NCBI GenBank assembly: GCA_964230645.1
Contig: CAXRHT010000001.1
Span: 640,001-704,000, forward strand
Reading direction: 5' to 3'
DNA from: Bdellovibrionales bacterium
Lineage (GTDB): Bacteria; Bdellovibrionota; Bdellovibrionia; Bdellovibrionales; JAGQZY01
DNA length: 64,000 nucleotides
Shown here: positions 3 to 59,086 of the stretch, one piece after another
How positions within the stretch are numbered: position 1 is the first letter of the stretch
How the letters are laid out: the number at the start of each line of letters is the position of its first letter
Program-made: the position numbers and the translations under genes
The notes under the pieces: model-generated
The model's database searches: none
What the model was told of the DNA's origin: nothing
The model's input: only the letters and a program-made list of their open reading frames with translations

Positions 3-407
3 AGCTACTGGGTAGAATCAACGAGCAAACCCGCCCTTCTCCTCTCAAGCGAAGAACGGGAGGAATTAGAAGAAGACCTTGAAACTGTAGAAGATGAAGA
101 AGGTAACGAGCAGAAACCAGACCCACAAGGTTTTGTCACAGACAATGGAGTCATTAAAAAAGCTCCGGCTACCCTGCCCGATGGACTTTTTTTCCAGTCT
201 ATCGAAATCGATGGTGACCCTATAGAAAAAGTCGAAACAGGCCGCGTTTATATCTACTTTTTCCCCCAAGGCTATGTTCAGAAAAGTGCGATTCACCTGA
301 CAAACCGTGATACCCTGAACTGGACTCTTGTTATTTCAGGACTCACAGGACGGGTCGATATTTTTAACAAGGAAAGAGAACTCAAGGAATTCAAGGTGGA
401 AGACTGA
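3..407 (+). CDS. gspH: Type II secretion minor pseudopilin GspH, 3' part (truncated by window start)
   Basis: Frame 3 is open from base 3 (SYWVESTSKP...IYFFPQGYVQKSAIHL...ISGLTGRVDIF...VED*). FFPQG and LTGRV are GspH-type C-terminal motifs. TGA overlaps the gspI ATG. Confidence 0.75.
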   Translation, partial: SYWVESTSKPALLLSSEEREELEEDLETVEDEEGNEQKPDPQGFVTDNGVIKKAPATLPDGLFFQSIEIDGDPIEKVETGRVYIYFFPQGYVQKSAIHLTNRDTLNWTLVISGLTGRVDIFNKERELKEFKVED

Positions 408-934
408 TGAGATTGAAACTGGGTGAAAAAGGATTCTCACTTTTTGAAGTACTGATTGCCATGTCGATCATGTCGTCGGCCGCCATCCTTATGTATATGT
501 CTTGGCACGGTAACCAGGTTCGAGTGCAAAAAATGGCCATAAACAATAAAGCGGCTCTTCTATTAGACCAAATCATGTCACGCCTTGAAATCGAATACTC
601 TGAGAGAATCACGCAGCTTCCTGAAAATGATGGTGGAGAATTCGAAGGCAATCCCCGTTACAGCTGGAAAATGGAATCTCGCGATTTTGAAATGCCGGAT
701 TTAAGGTCGGTCTTGATTTCAGGAGATCAAGGGAATGAAGCCATGCTTCTCGTGGTGGATAAACTCACTGAATATCTGAATCAAAGTGTTAAAGAAATGA
801 AAGTCACAGTCTTTTACAAGCGCGGTAAACAAACAACCTCCTATACGGCCACCACTTTTCTTGTCGATTACAATCAAAGCATTCCTATTGGAGGAGGCAT
901 CCCTGGGGGAGCCGGGGGAGGTTTTGGGCAATGA
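407..934 (+). CDS. gspI: Type II secretion minor pseudopilin GspI
   Basis: Prepilin motif KG|FSLFEVLIAM; position between gspH and gspJ. Confidence 0.8.
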   Translation: MRLKLGEKGFSLFEVLIAMSIMSSAAILMYMSWHGNQVRVQKMAINNKAALLLDQIMSRLEIEYSERITQLPENDGGEFEGNPRYSWKMESRDFEMPDLRSVLISGDQGNEAMLLVVDKLTEYLNQSVKEMKVTVFYKRGKQTTSYTATTFLVDYNQSIPIGGGIPGGAGGGFGQ

Positions 935-2016
935 CCGGACTTCCTCGTTTGCTTTCGGGGGCCTGTCCAAGAGCCCTCAGCAATAAAATTCGCGAAGCTT
1001 TTCAAAGAGGCACGCACTCGGGTGCACTTCGTCTCCCGGATTGCACCACTTCGTGGCGCAACCCGAGATACGCAGCGCTCGCTGCTCGAGCCTCTTTGAA
1101 AAGCTTCGCGAATTTTATTGCTGAGATCTCCTGGCCAGTTTTTCAAGAGAAATACCGTAAGGGCTTTACCCTTATTGAAGTTATGATTTCTATGTTTATT
1201 ATGGCTATGTTGACCATTTTGGTTTCAACTTCCATTCGTACGGCTGTGCAAAACAAGAAGAAAATTGAGGATCGAGTTAAAACCGAGACTATTCTTTATG
1301 ATACTCTTCGAGTCTTGAAGCTTGATATTGAGCGGGCCTTTCATTACCAAGATGTTTTTTGGGAAATTGAGAATTTGGCCATACAACAACTTGAAAATGA
1401 GCAGCAGAATCCCGGAGGACAAGGTCAAGGGCAAGTACAGGGTGGTTTTCAGAGAACGCAGCAGCCGGCTTTTGGAGCCAATCCTAATGTGCAGCAACGC
1501 CAGCCTCCGGTTCAACTCACACAGTTTTTAGGGGAGAAAAACAGTCTGCATTTTACTTCTCTTAATAACTTTCGCACCAAGTACAATGCGCCTGAGAGTG
1601 ATCAAATGGAGGTGGGCTTTTACTTAGAGTCTTGTGAAAGACGAGACGGTAAAGGAAACACGCAATGTTTATGGAGACGGTCTTCTCCGCAAATTGATGA
1701 TGAAGTGGATAAAGGTGGTACAAAAGTTGTTGTGGCCGAGCACGTCCAAAAGTTTCAGCTTCGTTACCGTGATAAAAGAGAAGATGGCGAATGGGTGGAT
1801 CAGTGGCGCTCGGACAACAAGGGACGCTCTGATCATCGCAATAAATTTCCCCACTTTGTGGAAGTCGAAATTGAAATTGAAGATGAGGACGATAAAAGGT
1901 CCAGAAAAGTAAGCCAAACTATGGTGGTCTCTTTAGCTTTCCCCAATAATCAAACTCACATTCAACAGCAGCAGCAACAACAACAACTTCAACAGAACTC
2001 GGGGGCCTTTCAATGA
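931..2016 (+). CDS. gspJ: Type II secretion minor pseudopilin GspJ with an abnormally long (78 aa) leader containing a palindromic insert
   Basis: KG|FTLIEVMISM at residues 77-88; GspJ-like body; ATGA overlap with gspI stop; C-terminal poly-Q. Confidence 0.85.
   Translation: MTGLPRLLSGACPRALSNKIREAFQRGTHSGALRLPDCTTSWRNPRYAALAARASLKSFANFIAEISWPVFQEKYRKGFTLIEVMISMFIMAMLTILVSTSIRTAVQNKKKIEDRVKTETILYDTLRVLKLDIERAFHYQDVFWEIENLAIQQLENEQQNPGGQGQGQVQGGFQRTQQPAFGANPNVQQRQPPVQLTQFLGEKNSLHFTSLNNFRTKYNAPESDQMEVGFYLESCERRDGKGNTQCLWRRSSPQIDDEVDKGGTKVVVAEHVQKFQLRYRDKREDGEWVDQWRSDNKGRSDHRNKFPHFVEVEIEIEDEDDKRSRKVSQTMVVSLAFPNNQTHIQQQQQQQQLQQNSGAFQ
976..1125 (+). repeat. Palindromic element, family A copy 1: perfect 36-bp inverted arms around a 78-nt structured core
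   Basis: 976-1011 is the exact reverse complement of 1090-1125. Core 1012-1089 is 69/78 identical to the reverse complement of 53098-53175. Confidence 0.95.
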
Positions 2017-5842: not shown

Positions 5843-6847
5843 ATGAACTCAAAACAAGTTTTACAATCCCTATTGAATGTTTTTAAGTACCACAAAAAAA
5901 AGATTTTCTTCTTTTTTGGCTCTGTTGTTTTCGGAATCATTGTTTTGTTTCCCTACGATGATTTGAGCGACTTCATTACTCAACAGGTGACCCAAGAAAC
6001 TCAAAGCAATGTCTATTTGCAATTTGACGGGCTTTCTTTTGGTCTCATGCCTCAGTTGGGTATTAAAATGGAAAACGTTTTAATCGAGACCGTTTACGCC
6101 CCGACTATGTCGGTCAAGACTCTTGGCTTTGCTCCCAAAATTTCCTCTCTACTCGGTTCGGCAGCAGGAAAGCTCGTTGCCTATGGTCTCTTTGACGGCG
6201 AAGCCTCTGTTGATTTTGGCCCAAGTAATGAACTCGACATTGAAGGCGAAGAGATGGGACTTGAGGTTGAGCTAGAAAATGTCGATCTCAAGGAACTGAC
6301 CAAATTTATCAATGAATCCAAGAAACTTCCTGTCACCATGAATGGAACCACGCAATTGGATTCTAGTTTTTATGTGGACCCAAGCTTTAAAGAACAGCCA
6401 AAGGGCACAGTCATTTTAGCTGTGAAAAACTTAGACATTCCATCCTCTACTCTCCCTATCAATATGAATGGGGTTCAAATGAGCCTTTCTCTTCCCGCTT
6501 TAAAACTCTCGGAGCTAAAGCTTGAAGGCAACCTCGATGATGGAAAGTTCTTTATTCGCGAGGGAAAAATTGGCGAAACTAAAAATGACCTTTACGGAAC
6601 TATTACTGGTGATGTCTTCTTCCAAATGGCCCCTGGGGGCCGCTTCCTTCCCGGTGGTTACGACTTAAAAGTGAACCTGAACATCAGTGAGAATTTGCAA
6701 AGACAGCTCAAACTTTTTCTGAGTGTTCTCGATATGCATGAAGGCATTGGTGATAAATACAAATTTAAAAGTCTTCGAGGCGTGCGCTATTCCATGCGCA
6801 TCTCTGCCCGCAACTTCAGCTCAGCCCCCCAAGTCAAATCCTACTAA
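5843..6847 (+). CDS. gspN: Type II secretion protein GspN (deltaproteobacterial type)
   Basis: N-terminal TM ending in LFPYDDLSDFI; beta-rich body; last gene of the cluster. Confidence 0.75.
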   Translation: MNSKQVLQSLLNVFKYHKKKIFFFFGSVVFGIIVLFPYDDLSDFITQQVTQETQSNVYLQFDGLSFGLMPQLGIKMENVLIETVYAPTMSVKTLGFAPKISSLLGSAAGKLVAYGLFDGEASVDFGPSNELDIEGEEMGLEVELENVDLKELTKFINESKKLPVTMNGTTQLDSSFYVDPSFKEQPKGTVILAVKNLDIPSSTLPINMNGVQMSLSLPALKLSELKLEGNLDDGKFFIREGKIGETKNDLYGTITGDVFFQMAPGGRFLPGGYDLKVNLNISENLQRQLKLFLSVLDMHEGIGDKYKFKSLRGVRYSMRISARNFSSAPQVKSY

Positions 6848-6965
6848 AAGGTACCAGGTTCTTTTTTCGGAAGCACAGTGACAATCTGTAGCTACTATCT
6901 ACTTAAAAGAGACCCGATACTTTAAAATTGGCGCTGCGCTTCCGAAAATAGAACCTGGTACCTTT
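6847..6965. mobile_element. MITE/REPIN-like element, family B copy 1 (39-bp imperfect terminal inverted repeats)
   Basis: 6847-6885 pairs with 6927-6965 (35/39). 6850-6877 is identical to the reverse complement of 41859-41886. Confidence 0.75.
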
Positions 6966-41681: not shown

Positions 41682-41698
41682 ATTGAAAGTACCTTGAA

Positions 41699-41886
41699 AG
41701 TACCTGGTTCTTTTTTCGTATGCGTGGTGTTAATGCCGACGAGTCCTCACTGAAAATTCAAGTCTGGTGTTGGTTCTCCCTAATAGCCAGGCTTCGGAAA
41801 CAGAAATGGCAATCCAAATTCACTACCGGGACAATGATGTTAAAAGCAATCTTGACGTTGTGCTTCCGAAAAAAGAACCTGGTACC
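41699..41886. mobile_element. MITE/REPIN-like element, family B copy 2
   Basis: GTACCTGGTTCTTTTTTCG...CGAAAAAAGAACCTGGTAC arms; 28-nt identity with the copy at 6850-6877; interior unrelated to copy 1. Confidence 0.75.
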
Positions 41887-41888
41887 CT

Positions 41889-43118
41889 CTAGGGTTTTAC
41901 TGCTTTTCCTTTTATATAGGTTTTTTCGGCCTGATGATTTTCCATCGAGTAGAAGAAGTTTTGCCAGGGTTTTTCTGTGATGAAGAAGTCGGCTTGTTTT
42001 CCTAGGGTGAGTGATCCTCTTTGGTTTTCTAGACCGAGAGCGCAGGCGCCATTGTAGGTGAGTGCTGCGAAGACTTCGGGTAGAGACATTTTCATTTTTA
42101 ATCTTGCAAGAAGACCGACAAAGCTTATGTTCTGAGTGGGACTAGAGCCTGGGTTATGGTCAGTGGCTAGAGCCACTCTTCCGCCTTGATCAATGAGAGC
42201 TCTGGCATCAGGGTAATCGCATTGAAGGTAAAAGTCGGCGGCTGGAAGAAGGACGGCTACTGTTTGAGACTGAGCGAGAGTTTTTTTGCCTTTTTTATCA
42301 AGGCAGATCACATGGTCAGCCGATTGCGCCTTTAACTCGACAGCCAAATCACTACCACCGGTGAGATTGAGTTGATCGGCGTGAATGGTGACCTTAAAGC
42401 CCATTTCTATGGCTGTGTTCAGATAGTCTTTGGCTTTTTCTTTTGAGAAATAATTCTTTTCAACGAAGATATCCACTCGGTCGGCAAGCTTGTTTTTCTT
42501 TATTATTTTTAAGTCTTCTTTGAGAGTTTCAAGGTAGCTTTCCTCATTCATTTCTTTGGGAATGGCGTGCGCCCCTAGGTAAGTGGTAACCACTTGGATA
42601 CCTTTCAGGGCTCTGGCGGCTTTGAGCATTTTTTTTTCGGTCTTTAAATTGAGGCCGTAGCCACTTTTTATTTCAACTGTTGTAACACCTTGTTTGAGAT
42701 GCTCCTTCACCCTTTGTTGAGCGAGTTCGGTGAGCTTTTTCTCACTGGCCTTGCGAGTGGACTCGACTGTAAATAAAATCCCTCCGCCTTTATTGGCGAT
42801 TTCTTGATAGCTGGTTCCCTGATTTCGAAGTTCAAACTCGTGCTTTCTATCGCCAGCGAAAACAAAATGGGTATGGCAATCGATAAATCCCGGAAAGACG
42901 TTTTTCTTTTTTAAGTCTACCTCTTTCAAAGCTTTGTAAGCTTTAGGGATTTTATCATTGTTTCCAATCCAAGAGATTTTACCGTCCTCTACAGCGAAAG
43001 CTTTTTTCTTCACAACACCGAGATCCTCTTTTAAAGGCTTTCGGCCCTGCTTTTGGAGGACTCCTGAGAGAGTCATCAACTCCCCTGCATTTCGAAAGAT
43101 GGTTCCCTTTTTAGCCAA
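41889..43118 (-). CDS. hutI: Imidazolonepropionase
   Basis: PGFIDCHTH, EIKSGYGL, HADQL, SADH, ALATDHNPGS. Confidence 0.95.
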   Translation of the reverse strand: MAKKGTIFRNAGELMTLSGVLQKQGRKPLKEDLGVVKKKAFAVEDGKISWIGNNDKIPKAYKALKEVDLKKKNVFPGFIDCHTHFVFAGDRKHEFELRNQGTSYQEIANKGGGILFTVESTRKASEKKLTELAQQRVKEHLKQGVTTVEIKSGYGLNLKTEKKMLKAARALKGIQVVTTYLGAHAIPKEMNEESYLETLKEDLKIIKKNKLADRVDIFVEKNYFSKEKAKDYLNTAIEMGFKVTIHADQLNLTGGSDLAVELKAQSADHVICLDKKGKKTLAQSQTVAVLLPAADFYLQCDYPDARALIDQGGRVALATDHNPGSSPTQNISFVGLLARLKMKMSLPEVFAALTYNGACALGLENQRGSLTLGKQADFFITEKPWQNFFYSMENHQAEKTYIKGKAVKP

Positions 43119-53047: not shown

Positions 53048-53225
53048 GCATGACAATACCGCTAGCTCGAAAGCTTCGGGCGGCTCGCAAGACAGGCTCA
53101 AGCAACGAGCGCTGCGTATCTCGGGTCGCGACATGAAATGGCGCGATCCGGGAGACGAAGTGCACCCGGGTGCGTGCCTGGCTTGCGAGCCGCCCGAAGC
53201 TTTCGAGCTAGCGGTATTGTCATGC
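53048..53225 (-). repeat. Palindromic element, family A copy 2: 44-bp perfect arms (+1 mismatch +5 bp) around the same 78-nt core
   Basis: 53048-53091 is the exact reverse complement of 53182-53225; core 53098-53175. Confidence 0.95.
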
Positions 53226-53379: not shown

Positions 53380-54519
53380 ATGAAAAAAAATGGGATCACC
53401 CTCCTATCTTTACTAGGATTTGTTTTGCTATTGTGGAGTCCATCCTACGGACGTCCCCAGTCAGAAATAAAAACTAAAAAAATTGCAAAAGCCGAAAAGA
53501 AATTCAACTTGCTCACCGACTTTTATATGGGAGCTTTTGGTTTCCAAGAGGGGCAAGACGACTCCCAACTGATTTATCTTTCTGCTAGACCTTATGGCTC
53601 TTACTTTCTAACCGAGTCTTTCGGTGTACAGGGTGACATTCAGTTAAACCTTACCACGGGTCGATCGCAAACTCGTTTTCAGAATCCGAACTTCAATAGT
53701 GTGAACATTCGTGAGCTTGTGGCGCATTTCAAACCAGGGTCTTACCTTGGTGTGAAAGGCGGAGCGATCAACCAAAACTTTCTTGGCAATCCCATGTTGA
53801 TCGCTGATCGTGGCTTCCCAGGAGTGTATGTGCAATCAGGCTATCAAAGTGAGGTTTTCTCTGTTCTTCCGAAAGTTCAATACTCTATTCCCACTTCCAC
53901 AAGTTATGAGTCTCAAAGAACGGAAGCCGAAGCTCTTCCGGCTTTGAAAACTTTTGGATTGGCTTTAGAAGTGAAACCATTGGAGTGGTTGCAACTCTCC
54001 AGTGACATACATCATTTTGAGTACAATCAACTCCCCGCTGTTGTAGCTGCTCAAAGTAACCGCTTTGGTAACTCTGTAGTTGGTGTGGACTCTGAATCCT
54101 CTTTTCGCTATCAGTTTGAAGGGCTGAGCCAGTTTTACACTCTGAAAACTCAATACACCTCTTTTCTTTCCCAAAGTTTTCAGGTGGGAATGGTTGATAA
54201 CTTCGAGGCTCCCCAAGACCGCAGGCGCTCTCAGTGGGTAGGAACAGGTTTTAACTGGACAACCGCTGATTTTAATATCTCCCCAAGTTTTGCCAGCTTC
54301 TTTGCTGAGTCTGACTCAGTTCCGGCCATTTACAGTGAGTTTGAACTAGGACGAAACAATCGTCAGGGACAAATGGTTCGGCTGGCTGTAGAGATTAAAA
54401 AATGGAATCTTATTATTCGATCCCGCTACGTGGAATCTCAACTCATTGAACAGCGTCCCCTACAAGCAGACATGAAAATTTTTGATCTTGGATTGGAGTT
54501 TACGAATGTGTTCCTCTAA
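53380..54519 (+). CDS. Outer-membrane beta-barrel protein (porin/translocator-like)
   Basis: Signal peptide; many amphipathic beta strands with aromatic ends; C-terminal GLEFTNVFL. Confidence 0.7.
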   Translation: MKKNGITLLSLLGFVLLLWSPSYGRPQSEIKTKKIAKAEKKFNLLTDFYMGAFGFQEGQDDSQLIYLSARPYGSYFLTESFGVQGDIQLNLTTGRSQTRFQNPNFNSVNIRELVAHFKPGSYLGVKGGAINQNFLGNPMLIADRGFPGVYVQSGYQSEVFSVLPKVQYSIPTSTSYESQRTEAEALPALKTFGLALEVKPLEWLQLSSDIHHFEYNQLPAVVAAQSNRFGNSVVGVDSESSFRYQFEGLSQFYTLKTQYTSFLSQSFQVGMVDNFEAPQDRRRSQWVGTGFNWTTADFNISPSFASFFAESDSVPAIYSEFELGRNNRQGQMVRLAVEIKKWNLIIRSRYVESQLIEQRPLQADMKIFDLGLEFTNVFL

Positions 54520-57500
54520 GAAATTGCGCTCTTTTTGTATTGTTATTTCAAACTTGGCCTTGGCGTTTTCACTGTCTTCTTGTCTGCGCTCAGCCTCTGA
54601 CCCCACCAGTCCTGGAGTGACCGAAGATGTGACTGGAGATTTTAAAGCTCTTGTGATCGATGGCTCCTCTGTTGAGAGTTCAAGAAATCCTCACTGGCAA
54701 CTTCCCACCGAGAAAACCTACGATTACAGAGTGTGCTTGATCAGTCGTATGACCGAAGCTCCCCTACCCATCGGACAGTCTTTCCATCTTAAAAATCCGC
54801 AAGGGGAAGTTAAAGAACTAACGACTGATAACTTAGGATGCATCAACTGGACAGAAACGATTCCCTTTAATTTTATGAGTGACGCCTTTTTTATCGAAAA
54901 AAAGAGAACTCTTATTGGGATGGGAACCTATCGAGGCTCATCTATCCTTCGCTATGCAATCAATCCATGGTTAAGCTATCACGGTAACAGTGGTAAAGAG
55001 GTTGTCGACTTAGAACGCGGAAATAACAATATTCCGTCAGCTCGCTTAATCCCAGAGCAGGCCGAAGATGATTCTTTGGCGGGGCTTTTTAGCCACCGCA
55101 ATAGCCGTAATCTTCTTGTGGAAAGGAACATTTCCTATCAAATGATTCCGACTGGTGACCACGAGAGCGGTAAATATTTTAACCTCAACGTACAGCTTCG
55201 CCCCTTTATCGAGCCTAGAAACATGAACAATGACCGCACGAAGATTCCTCTAAATACCGGAAGGTTTCGAGTGTTCGTACAATTGGTGGGAAGTTATATT
55301 GGAGAAAGTCAGAATCCACAAAAAGTCATACTGACCCCAGAGCTTGCACCGCAAGAAATCAATATTCAATCTGAGTCGACTTTACAGTTTCGACAGAACA
55401 ATGTTCCTTTGAGTCGTCAGATCACAACTGGACAAGTGCAATTGGCCATCCGTGTGGTTCCCATCGATCCGCCTTTTGCGATGAATGAATTTGAGGGCCT
55501 TTATAATATTGGGAATTTTAATCAGATCTTTCAATCAACTTCTCTTTCACAAGTCCAGGGTTCCCAAGATCAAGACACCTTCAGTTATTCTGATCTTCTC
55601 AATGACACTGAGAATTTTGAAGAGCTCTCTCAAGCTGGTTGGGTTCATGATCTTCCCCCTGTGGAGTACTCAAATCTTGAACCACGCTTCGTACAGGTTA
55701 AACCGGGTGAGACTTCAACAGAGCGAACCATTATTTACCGGGTGGCGACCCAAGTAACAGACAGTGTGGATGGCTCTCCAATTATTAAACAACCTTTCAC
55801 CATTGTGCACCCTAAAGAAAGTTGCCAAGAGGCAACAGTTAGAGAGGTTATGGATCGTCTCAATCAAGATGGTACCTGTGAAGAGGATATGGAGACAGAC
55901 CATAGGGGCTACCTCTATTGGAGAGATGAACTCACTCACCTTTATTATGAGCGAGAGCACCGTATTCTTCAGGATTTTAAAATCATCCACAAACGCTCAA
56001 ATCGCAGTGACACTTATACTTTGGCTCTAAATCCCTGGGATGAAGGGTGGACATTTGGTGGCGATCTTCGAAGTCGTATCGTTGAAAAAGACTACGATTT
56101 TGACATGGCAGAAGCCAAACCCAACTTACTAATGATCGATGCTTTCCGCTATCAAACCATTCGATTTCGATATGTGATTGACGAATTTTTAACTCTCAAC
56201 GTGAAAAAAGCCGTTGTTATGGCTCTAGATCCTCTTGTGCAAAGAGACACTCTTTATCGCGGTCGTATCTTTGAACCACTAAGAGATGGGGTTTATTTAG
56301 TTAAAATTGCTCTGGTGAAATACTACATCGATCCTTTCCAAAATGGCCTACATCTTCATAAAAAAGATTGCAAGGAAGGTGATTCCTCCGAGAACTGCTA
56401 CCAGGTGCAACCTGTCTCTGCTGGTGGTGAAGCCAGAAAAGGTCAGTACACCACGGTTATTAAAAAACTTTTAAGGGTTCAGGCTGGGAGAATTACAACT
56501 CCTCTAGAGTTTTCCATGCGTGATCTTCGTATGATGAGTATTCGTTCGAACATTATGGTGCAGCTTGAAACCATTGATGAAAAAAGGCTCCTTCGCGACA
56601 ATCTTGTTAACGAACGATTAATGGAGCTTGAAAGAGAATATTTTGAATTCAATCCTGAGACCATGACCGATGAGGATCGAGAATTTTTCCAAGCTCGATA
56701 TGGTTATCTTCCTGAAGAAATGTCAGAAGAGCAAAAAGCCAGATTTCTGGCTGAAAGAGCGCAGGAATTTGAAGAAGAAAAGGATAAATTCTTAGAATTT
56801 ATCCGAGAGTCTCGCGAAGACCTAGAAGCCACAAGAGCTGAACAAAGAGAAGTCCAGAGAAGACGTTTTGAGTTAGTCGATCAGATTGAAAGAGAACTGA
56901 CTCAAGGCTCCGCTCAAAGAGAGTACGAGAGACCCGATCCATTGATCAGTCTTCCGCGCGGAGAATTTGATGAAATTATAGAAAGAGCTCGCAGCAATAT
57001 TGGTCGCATGGAACTCGACATGAAAGAACATTGGTCTCAGTGGGATGAAAACTGGGAAGATGTGATGAGTTCTTACGAACACGGCGAGTACATCGTTGAG
57101 GACCGCAGCTTTCGTCGTACCTATTTTGACTACCTAGCTATGATGCAAACTTTCTTACTTGATTACGGTATTGATCAAGTGGTCACAGAGTCTGATAGAA
57201 ACCGTTTGATGTTAAACAATTACACTCAAAATCCTGTGGCGCCTATAGTGGACCTTAATTTCTATCGAAATAAGTCAGGACTTAAAAGAAGAACCTTTAT
57301 TGGACCATGTACACTTGTCGAAAACGAGAATATGTCAGAGATGAGACCAACAGATACTGTGGACGAGAAGTACTGTGACCGTATCGACTGCGGTGAAACT
57401 CTTTACGAGCCACGCTTTCCTCTCCCTGATAATTCTGAGTTTGAAAACTCAGCTCATCATGACTCCCTTAAACCCTTTGCCAATATGCACGTGGATGAGG

Positions 57501-59086
57501 TCATTGATATCCACAGGGAAAATGAACGTCGTTACGAAATGGAAATGGACGCTCTTTCTCAAATGGGCAATTACACCAAATCTTTTAATCTTGAGTATGT
57601 CAGTCTTGATGATAAAGAGCCTTTGACAGTTTTCAAGCAAGGTTGCTCTTTTGAAGAGGGCGAAGACTGCTTTCCAAGGACAACCAGAGGTGTGACTCCC
57701 TCTGATCAGTTTATTACAGAACTTAATAGAGAACCTTTGGTTCGACTCCTTCAAAAATACTATTACCTCAACTCGAAGTCGGAATTAGAGCGAGTGAATG
57801 CGGAGGTTGAAAGCCGCTCGGATCTTTCAAGACGAGACCAATTACAGCCACTTTGGAATCGTTCGACCGAAGACAGCGGGCTTCTTTTTTCTTTCCTAGG
57901 AAAAATTGATACAGCGTTGCCTCCCATGGGTTTTCGGGATCGTGGTATTGGCAACCAGTACCTCCGTTCTGGAAGAGAGTACGTCGAGGAAAACTACGGT
58001 CCCGGCAGCGACCCTGTAGTGAATACCGAAGATGTCAGTTCTTGGTTAAAAAACGGCATGGATTCCATGAAATTAGAAGACGCCCTTCGAATCTGTACCC
58101 TACTTGCAGGCCAGTCCGCAAAGATGCTTAAAGAAAAGGACCTCGTTGATCAGGACTATAGTGCTTGGAGCGGTGGGCCTGAGCACAGTATGGAAGAGCA
58201 ACTTCAGTTAAGATGTTTTAACCGCATTAAATACCTACCAAACTCTAAAGAAGTCTTCTTTGATGGTATCCATTTTGATCGACGTTATAAGATTTTAGAA
58301 ACCGGGTCGTACGAGCATATTGCTGGTATGAATATGAACATCAATGTCGGCATTAACTTTGGAATCAGCTCCTACGATGATGTTAGTACGGCTTCCTCCC
58401 TTGGGCTCAATGATTCCGCAGTCCTTGGTCTTCCCGCAGCCGGGATCGGTCTCGGTCTCGCGATGGCCGGAGCGGCCGCTCCTGTAGCCGTTGCTGGAGG
58501 AGCTTTTGTTGCGGCCAGTGGTGGACTTCTGGTGGCTTCAAGGGCTTCTACAGAGGCTGACGGTGTCAATCAAGCCACCACCACAGCTGTCGACGCGGCC
58601 ACCTTCTTAGTGGTCCAAAAAGCCGACTTTGATATTAAGATCAAACGCCATATCAAGTGTGTAACCTTGAAGTTTGGAGCCGAATTTTTAGAATCACTGA
58701 ACGCGAGACACCTGGAACTAAAAGAGGATGTAAAGGTCACCGACTTTAAGGTCCAAGAGGCTCTCACCCGAGGTTATATGATTTGTGACAACAAAGAAAC
58801 CGACGAGGTAGAGACGATCCGCGAGAGCTACTATTATGTGACTCAACATTTCACCGCCGGTGACATGCTCGACGATGTAAATTTACTTAACCATATTTGG
58901 CTTCTTTCTCTGCGTGGAAAAAGAGACTTCAACGAATTTATTCGAATCTTGAAATCGAAAAAAATCGATAAAAATGGAGAGGTCATTGAGGGTGATGAGA
59001 TTTATGATTATGCTCTCTCAAGGCTTGGACGTGTTTATAAGCAGGTCGTCCCTACCTTCCCAGGGCTCTACTCCGCTCAAGAGTAA
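54506..59086 (+). CDS. Giant (1,526 aa) lipoprotein of unknown function
   Basis: GGAG RBS then ATG 54506; lipobox LSSC; internal repeat; coiled coil; Gly/Ala-rich hydrophobic segment near the C-terminus. Confidence 0.8.
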   Translation: MCSSKKLRSFCIVISNLALAFSLSSCLRSASDPTSPGVTEDVTGDFKALVIDGSSVESSRNPHWQLPTEKTYDYRVCLISRMTEAPLPIGQSFHLKNPQGEVKELTTDNLGCINWTETIPFNFMSDAFFIEKKRTLIGMGTYRGSSILRYAINPWLSYHGNSGKEVVDLERGNNNIPSARLIPEQAEDDSLAGLFSHRNSRNLLVERNISYQMIPTGDHESGKYFNLNVQLRPFIEPRNMNNDRTKIPLNTGRFRVFVQLVGSYIGESQNPQKVILTPELAPQEINIQSESTLQFRQNNVPLSRQITTGQVQLAIRVVPIDPPFAMNEFEGLYNIGNFNQIFQSTSLSQVQGSQDQDTFSYSDLLNDTENFEELSQAGWVHDLPPVEYSNLEPRFVQVKPGETSTERTIIYRVATQVTDSVDGSPIIKQPFTIVHPKESCQEATVREVMDRLNQDGTCEEDMETDHRGYLYWRDELTHLYYEREHRILQDFKIIHKRSNRSDTYTLALNPWDEGWTFGGDLRSRIVEKDYDFDMAEAKPNLLMIDAFRYQTIRFRYVIDEFLTLNVKKAVVMALDPLVQRDTLYRGRIFEPLRDGVYLVKIALVKYYIDPFQNGLHLHKKDCKEGDSSENCYQVQPVSAGGEARKGQYTTVIKKLLRVQAGRITTPLEFSMRDLRMMSIRSNIMVQLETIDEKRLLRDNLVNERLMELEREYFEFNPETMTDEDREFFQARYGYLPEEMSEEQKARFLAERAQEFEEEKDKFLEFIRESREDLEATRAEQREVQRRRFELVDQIERELTQGSAQREYERPDPLISLPRGEFDEIIERARSNIGRMELDMKEHWSQWDENWEDVMSSYEHGEYIVEDRSFRRTYFDYLAMMQTFLLDYGIDQVVTESDRNRLMLNNYTQNPVAPIVDLNFYRNKSGLKRRTFIGPCTLVENENMSEMRPTDTVDEKYCDRIDCGETLYEPRFPLPDNSEFENSAHHDSLKPFANMHVDEVIDIHRENERRYEMEMDALSQMGNYTKSFNLEYVSLDDKEPLTVFKQGCSFEEGEDCFPRTTRGVTPSDQFITELNREPLVRLLQKYYYLNSKSELERVNAEVESRSDLSRRDQLQPLWNRSTEDSGLLFSFLGKIDTALPPMGFRDRGIGNQYLRSGREYVEENYGPGSDPVVNTEDVSSWLKNGMDSMKLEDALRICTLLAGQSAKMLKEKDLVDQDYSAWSGGPEHSMEEQLQLRCFNRIKYLPNSKEVFFDGIHFDRRYKILETGSYEHIAGMNMNINVGINFGISSYDDVSTASSLGLNDSAVLGLPAAGIGLGLAMAGAAAPVAVAGGAFVAASGGLLVASRASTEADGVNQATTTAVDAATFLVVQKADFDIKIKRHIKCVTLKFGAEFLESLNARHLELKEDVKVTDFKVQEALTRGYMICDNKETDEVETIRESYYYVTQHFTAGDMLDDVNLLNHIWLLSLRGKRDFNEFIRILKSKKIDKNGEVIEGDEIYDYALSRLGRVYKQVVPTFPGLYSAQE

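Follow-up and report, generated by a model that had tools for sequence, protein, structure and literature searches.

A dispersed palindromic element of Bdellovibrionales with a conserved core and copy-specific arms, one copy of which lies in frame in the leader of gspJ

How can a gspJ gene carry a long palindrome within its coding sequence, and what kind of element is that palindrome? The question arises in the window analysed here, a stretch of 64,000 nucleotides from a Bdellovibrionales genome (the source genome, G000), in which the open reading frame at 931–2016 matches T2SSJ and, at residues 74–98, N_methyl. Its product agrees with the type 4 prepilin definition given in PMC10191384, namely a hydrophilic leader ending in G followed by a hydrophobic helix with E5. 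The following features are referred to below:

407–934, plus strand: gspI-type pseudopilin gene, whose TGA overlaps the gspJ ATG
917–921, plus strand: GGAGG, ribosome-binding-like by its sequence, 9 nt upstream of the ATG at 931
931–2016, plus strand: gspJ open reading frame, 361 aa, with a leader of 78 aa (931–1164) and the cleavage site between G78 and F79
935–1147, no strand assigned: approximate inserted segment, 213 nt assuming the ancestral leader M-K-Y-R-K-G, with estimated ends
957–962, plus strand: G-run bordering the left arm on its outer side, as is usual for copies in the source genome
963–1011, plus strand: left arm, 49 bp, perfect at 976–1011, with a sequence particular to the gspJ copy
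1012–1089, minus strand: conserved family-A core, 78 nt, a long irregular hairpin on the minus strand capped by a GNA triloop
1090–1138, plus strand: right arm, 49 bp, perfect at 1090–1125
1139–1143, plus strand: T-run, 3′ of the right arm
53048–53225, plus strand: second family-A copy, core 53098–53175 with the plus strand as folding strand, intergenic and upstream of a cupin gene

An earlier sequence-only reading had described a 150-bp palindromic element here, and much of its account of the reading frame was borne out: the frame begins in the ATGA that it shares with gspI and runs through the palindrome without a stop, and the leader ends at G78 and F79 after 78 aa, compared with 9 aa in GspI. 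Its statement that a TTG buried in the stem is the only other in-frame start was mistaken, since a second TTG, at codon 7 (949), is not part of the stem; the first lies at codon 56. The leader contains 13 K/R and 4 D/E (net charge +9), and no hydrophobic stretch resembling a pilin helix was found within its 78 aa. Prepilin leaders, as described in PMC10191384, are variable in length, cytoplasmic and removed by cleavage, and a prepilin peptidase was found in G000. Because the leader is positively charged and free of a pilin-like helix, and because prepilin leaders vary and are cleaved off, this is a plausibly harmless landing place.

GspJ was matched in 11 of 12 genomes of the same genus, with the start covered in 10. 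Aligning these orthologs, a check that had been proposed with the first reading, revealed an empty site in all 10, with leaders of 4–10 aa and no palindrome; the gspJ start overlaps or abuts the upstream gene in every one. Relative to them the insertion measures 204–222 nt (68–74 codons). The proposal of an inserted non-autonomous element in a neutral safe harbour is therefore upheld as far as insertion, multiple copies (see below) and non-coding character are concerned, and harmless landing in the leader appears plausible from the sequence. Stop-free frames are common in this element (45 of 156 reading frames through 26 copies), which makes the in-frame placement in gspJ unremarkable, and by our own estimate an in-frame, stop-free outcome is expected for roughly one insertion in ten. 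In the simplest reading, the gspJ location is probably a tolerated accident: translation would begin at the ATG at 931, the insertion would have kept the frame and merely lengthened the leader, and prepilin peptidase would remove that leader.

The hairpin might instead have been retained as a regulator, with ribosomes on the leader masking the left arm and so blocking termination or RNase III cleavage, which would couple transcription of gspJKLMN to translation. The RNA fold on the mRNA strand, at about −110 kcal/mol and followed by a run of five T, is in line with such a role; the restriction of the insertion to the source lineage (0 of 10 orthologs), an anatomy identical to that of intergenic copies and the frequency of stop-free frames make it very unlikely. 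Taken alone, the gspJ copy is an ordinary tolerated insertion that offers a natural test of maximal prepilin leader length.

Positions 976–1011 are the exact reverse complement of 1090–1125 (36/36), and the core between them is 78 nt long, as first described. The length of exactly 150 nt, or 50 codons, is correct for the stretch of perfect pairing and marks nothing more than its end, because the arms run on to 49 bp with 4 mismatches (963–1011/1090–1138) and the element is larger. An assembly artefact, which had been named as a possible objection, is countered by a contig from an independent sample that runs from the right arm into gspJ and shows 0 differences, no contig spanning the whole element. 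The second copy in the window has the same core between 50-bp arms (49/50 paired) that are unrelated to the gspJ arms. At 54482–59086 the window holds a 1534-aa open reading frame with an N-terminus lipoprotein-like in appearance.

A genome-wide search with the core, likewise suggested at the outset, identified 28 copies in G000 (27 by BLAST and one divergent copy by nhmmer). According to a crude ORF caller, 27 of these are apparently intergenic and the gspJ copy is the one in a gene; by hand tally, the neighbours of the 27 are arranged in tandem in 14 cases, convergently in eight and divergently in five. The arms of the 26 regular copies, statistics from which C3:486939 with its 40-nt insert in the core was excluded, are 43–62 bp long, and the outer bases are biased toward G before the left arm (152/260) and T after the right arm (129/260). 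Between copies, identity is 82% in the core versus 34% in the arms (325 pairs) and 26% in the outside flank, and within each copy the two arms match nearly perfectly despite this divergence. Core and arm identity are uncorrelated (rho 0.08), and copy pairs with 97% identical cores have arms that are 37–50% identical. The main feature of the element is this family architecture, a conserved core between copy-specific, co-corrected and flipping arms, rather than its position in gspJ. Repeat finders that seek conserved ends would overlook such elements.

Members of the family are dispersed beyond the source genome. A core-derived pattern matched 18 GTDB loci, 16 of them titled Bdellovibrionales, Bdellovibrionaceae or Pseudobdellovibrionaceae; arms are present at all 16 and absent at the other two. 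The same pattern matched 18 metagenomic loci (12 with arms) and returned 0 matches in viral contigs. A covariance model of the core had hits in 24 of 151 genomes of the order, with a patchy spread and, in several genomes, at least 28 candidates; three of these genomes are weak matches, and arms are absent in the two weak ones that were checked. Long arms were found at 61 of 69 distinct loci outside G000, counted after removal of 11 duplicate loci, versus 0 of 300 trials at random genome positions, so the pairing of the arms is not a product of chance. Across the dispersed family, arms of 23–134 bp enclose a core of 60–100 nt. In the variant cores L098 and L100 (G043 and G032) the bracketing motifs are kept and the central stem has few pairs or about 60 nt. 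The best Rfam match had an E value of 0.82 and all were far below the gathering score, and a literature search whose coverage left out most subscription journals returned no description of the family or its architecture. A promoter and terminator scan gave nothing tied to the element. The possibility that the arms are guides or spacers was rejected, their genome matches being only 14–23 nt, which is chance level.

What is conserved in the core is a fold. One strand, at gspJ the minus strand, gives the better fold in 26 of 26 copies as DNA and 25 of 26 as RNA, with a z-score of −4.4 on the folding strand versus −2.0. When 35 cores were aligned, 92.7% of cells paired and 11 of 20 pairs had changed on both sides; this covariation score was unreached in 500 shuffles, and slid controls paired at 29–47%, relatedness being able to inflate such counts. 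A cloverleaf was rejected because covariation backs the long hairpin. In 25 of 27 copies the hairpin ends in a G-N-A apical loop, a count limited to G000 since the search pattern forced a GNA loop in the other collections. Among 56 arm mismatches, 45 contain G on the folding strand and six contain C without G, and they are concentrated in the inner 13 bp (39/338 vs 17/780). GNA triloops and mismatches involving G mark single-stranded DNA. The preference for a single strand and the GNA triloops of the modelled structure suggest a single-stranded DNA fold.

Covariation of this kind (11 of 20 pairs, 0 of 500 shuffles) could also reflect a domesticated structured RNA, either cut free of the paired arms by RNase III or active in 3′ untranslated regions, for which the arms need only pair. 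The core is conserved at orthologous loci (see below), many copies lie directly after stop codons with a T-run 3′ of the stem, and the minus strand is also the better one as RNA (25/26). Set against this, the strand that folds varies in its orientation to the adjacent genes and the core can be flipped, the GNA triloops (25/27) are better suited to DNA, and the distribution is patchy and multi-copy with no Rfam match near the gathering score. We therefore regard an RNA function as unlikely, and the single-stranded DNA fold is retained in what follows.

The arms were compared at three orthologous pairs with both flanks in common, and the core is flipped in two of them. At L031/L037 the core differs at 1 of 88 positions and is inverted relative to the genes, the arms differ at 12 of 70 positions plus indels, each genome has 0–1 arm mismatch, and fourfold sites diverge by 26–34%. 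At L024/L036 the orientation is the same and the core differs at 0 of 78 positions; the arms are unalignable (fourfold sites 40/76). The core at L059/L107 is inverted; over 77 positions it has eight changes and one gap, most of which fall in the variable stem (fourfold sites 56/112). In a related strain, represented by one low-depth contig with one arm visible, 13 of 49 arm positions and no more than 1 of 78 core positions are unlike G000. Hypermutation of the arms was rejected, as arm divergence does not exceed that of fourfold sites.

The last codons of dapB (L036), oppC (L040) and a rhomboid gene (L029) are present in both arms of the adjacent copies. Arms are also common to different loci, as in L055/L058/L060 (about 80%), L032/L037 and six copies of G095; the latter are 88% identical in the outer arm, 59% in the inner arm and 95% in the core. 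A REP-like GGTAC motif forms the outer arm in these six copies and in L031/L032/L037. The G095 copies L144–L163 have T-poor arms of 71% GC versus 48% locally and arms in AT-rich hosts have 22–26% GC, so that arm composition exaggerates host bias. In one metagenome contig (L050) the core connects the left flank of a G095-type copy to the right flank of a second one (L146, L150), which is either a misassembly or real recombination. In G000, shared ancestry of the arms is barely detectable (best score 35, shuffled maximum 33), and because these arms keep so little kinship, the case for movement together with the arms draws on copies in other genomes and on the empty sites of distant relatives. 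Filled and empty alleles were compared at three orthologous sites: gspI/J, engB-kdsB, where both arms are absent in 5 of 5 relatives, and uvrA-ABC, where 0–14 nt separate the genes in five relatives versus about 250 nt in G000. The empty sites are too diverged for a target-site duplication to be defined. Contigs from one population contained no joints indicating excision or an empty allele, and none of them spans the element.

The copied gene ends at L036, L040 and L029, together with arm GC that tracks the host, would also be expected if insertion itself had created the arms by duplicating target DNA in inverted orientation. The empty sites at three G000 loci hold no arm-like sequence, two of them having far less than the 49 bp of room required, and arms are common to different loci; such an origin is accordingly improbable in our judgement, an assessment that is not final because the relatives are distant (70–78% DNA identity).

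Template switching is described as homogenising arms and inverting spacers (PMC8604942), perfecting bacterial repeats (PMC5941160) and expanding arms (PMC13100816). A slowly changing core, fast and co-changing arms, a flipped core and copied gene ends are all explained by template switching between the arms. Fold-back at the replication fork would copy one arm onto the other; this copying would erase each mutation or fix it in both arms, invert the core and extend the arms into the flanks. The folded core could be recognised in trans by an enzyme processing single-stranded DNA that spreads the element. We consider it reasonably probable, with real room for doubt, that the element as a whole is a dispersed non-coding one that moves as a unit of 200–250 nt, with a single-stranded DNA hairpin as core and arms kept matched by template switching. 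The L059/L107 pair is less extreme than the other ortholog pairs and weighs against this explanation, and a purely selfish element does not account for conservation of the core at orthologous loci.

The search for a mobilising partner covered the neighbours of the copies and candidate families in the genome. None of 117 neighbouring proteins matched a transposase, integrase or reverse transcriptase family (35 had no Pfam match), and the core was found at 0 of 38 Y1 or tyrosine-recombinase loci. An IS91 Y2 profile gave no match, as did its control. A GIY-YIG candidate was discarded as a single match within a 635-aa open reading frame, and a weak tblastn match near C1:574 kb lies inside an unrelated large one. 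A 179-aa tyrosine recombinase consisting of the catalytic domain only (C2:155405–155944, L143) occurs in 118 of 151 genomes of the order and was rejected as a specific partner, being order-wide and absent from two model-positive genomes. SbcCD has a role in whether a background is permissive for palindromes. SbcD was detected in 16 of 151 genomes, in none of the 24 model-positive ones and not in G000; because 15 of the 16 belong to one family without model hits, this distribution is only compatible with a permissive background.

Two RAYTs are encoded in G000, which raises the possibility of an inside-out REPIN spread by a host RAYT (Y1 HUH) transposase. REPIN spacers are likewise copy-specific yet self-complementary (PMC3337134), GGTAC REP-like outer arms occur in the six G095 copies and L031/L032/L037, and a further family (D, below) adjoins TGTC-type REPs. 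The repeat on either side of both RAYT genes is another one, the core is at none of the 38 recombinase loci just mentioned, and the family-A copies of G000 have no conserved REP ends. Moreover, PF01797 was not found in G041 and G138 (99% complete), which are rich in the element, whereas genomes free of the element do contain it, so that its distribution does not track the element and co-occurrence was rejected. A RAYT is not required, and spread by one is quite unlikely. The window also contains GGTACC-type REP doublets at 6847–6965, abutting the gspN stop codon, and 41692–41893, which resemble those flanking both RAYT genes, and a TGTC-type REP pattern has 171 matches across G000, with no adjacent Y1 transposase found.

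A retron- or UG27-like route, in which an arm-closed plus-strand RNA templates a cDNA hairpin that reinserts, would suit the observations that the complementary strand folds best as DNA and that the central stem is variable and lies between conserved motifs, an arrangement described for UG27 units (bioRxiv 10.64898/2026.09.22.753630). RVT_1 (PF00078) had no match in the 99.6% complete G000, where a very divergent reverse transcriptase could escape the profile, none was present among the 117 neighbours, viral contigs gave no hits, and the copies are dispersed rather than arrayed beside a reverse transcriptase. This route is extremely improbable, and template switching around a single-stranded DNA core remains our preferred account.

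A scan of G000 for long inverted repeats revealed further cores of like plan, families B (11 copies), C (4), D (9) and E (1), exemplified by C1:356956, C1:255795, C1:766621 and C3:715970, with cores of 44–62 nt and arms that pair almost perfectly and differ from copy to copy, family D being the least variable. In 9 of 9 cases family D follows a gene of the same orientation, and it adjoins TGTC-type REPs. A nested palindrome of about 40 nt is common to the family-A core at C3:486939 and the family-D cores at C1:142857, C1:733460 and C3:591738. A replichore bias of family A (20/28, p 0.036) was set aside as weak, because families B–D give 4/11, 1/4 and 6/9.

More tentatively, and with considerable doubt, these elements may form an undescribed, widespread inside-out class in which a single-stranded DNA core recruits a non-transposase host enzyme that disperses the element and rewrites and flips its arms, the core being selected at each site as a means of defusing or exploiting a harmful palindrome; several unrelated cores (A–E) would then share one plan. 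The family provides natural, many-fold replicated evidence that long inverted repeats in bacteria undergo concerted evolution, inversion and growth on either side of a conserved site. Its 78-nt core is moreover a defined substrate with which to seek the enzyme that disperses palindromic repeats lacking a transposase of their own, such as CGTC-type REPs, for which no dedicated transposase is known (PMC10969869; PMC3733652), and Rickettsia palindromic elements (RPEs).

Membership in each known system compared fails on a defining feature. RPEs (PMC10969869) and intragenic REPs (PMC3733652) similarly comprise palindromes of about 150 nt in frame within genes. RPEs had been named as the precedent, which is apt for an in-frame palindrome in a gene and less so for the family, with one of 28 copies genic here: nearly half of RPEs (three families) are in open reading frames with a conserved peptide (PMC10969869), and there is no conserved peptide here because the arms are unconserved. 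MITEs such as Correia, ERIC and RUP are alike in size, non-autonomy, gene-adjacent location and strong stem-loop (PMC10969869; PMC3733652), whereas their terminal repeats are the conserved part and here the ends are the least conserved. UG27 non-coding RNA units share a variable basal stem and conserved internal-loop motifs around a central hairpin (bioRxiv 10.64898/2026.09.22.753630); they are arrayed beside a reverse transcriptase in prophages, and neither reverse transcriptase nor array was found here. Quasi-palindromes undergoing template switching resemble the element in arm homogenisation, spacer inversion and arm growth (PMC8604942; PMC5941160), although those cases are short repeats with short spacers, unlike the long arms and dispersed-family core described here. 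REPINs and REPs are, like the element, non-coding, intergenic, multi-copy and patchy hairpins with a copy-specific self-complementary stem and a likely single-stranded DNA substrate (PMC3337134; PMC6006769; PMC2718517). A REPIN has a cognate RAYT flanked by its repeat, none of which was found here, and its ends are conserved and its middle variable, in contrast to the conserved middle and varying ends (arms 34%) of the present family. The element thus works most like a REPIN turned inside out.
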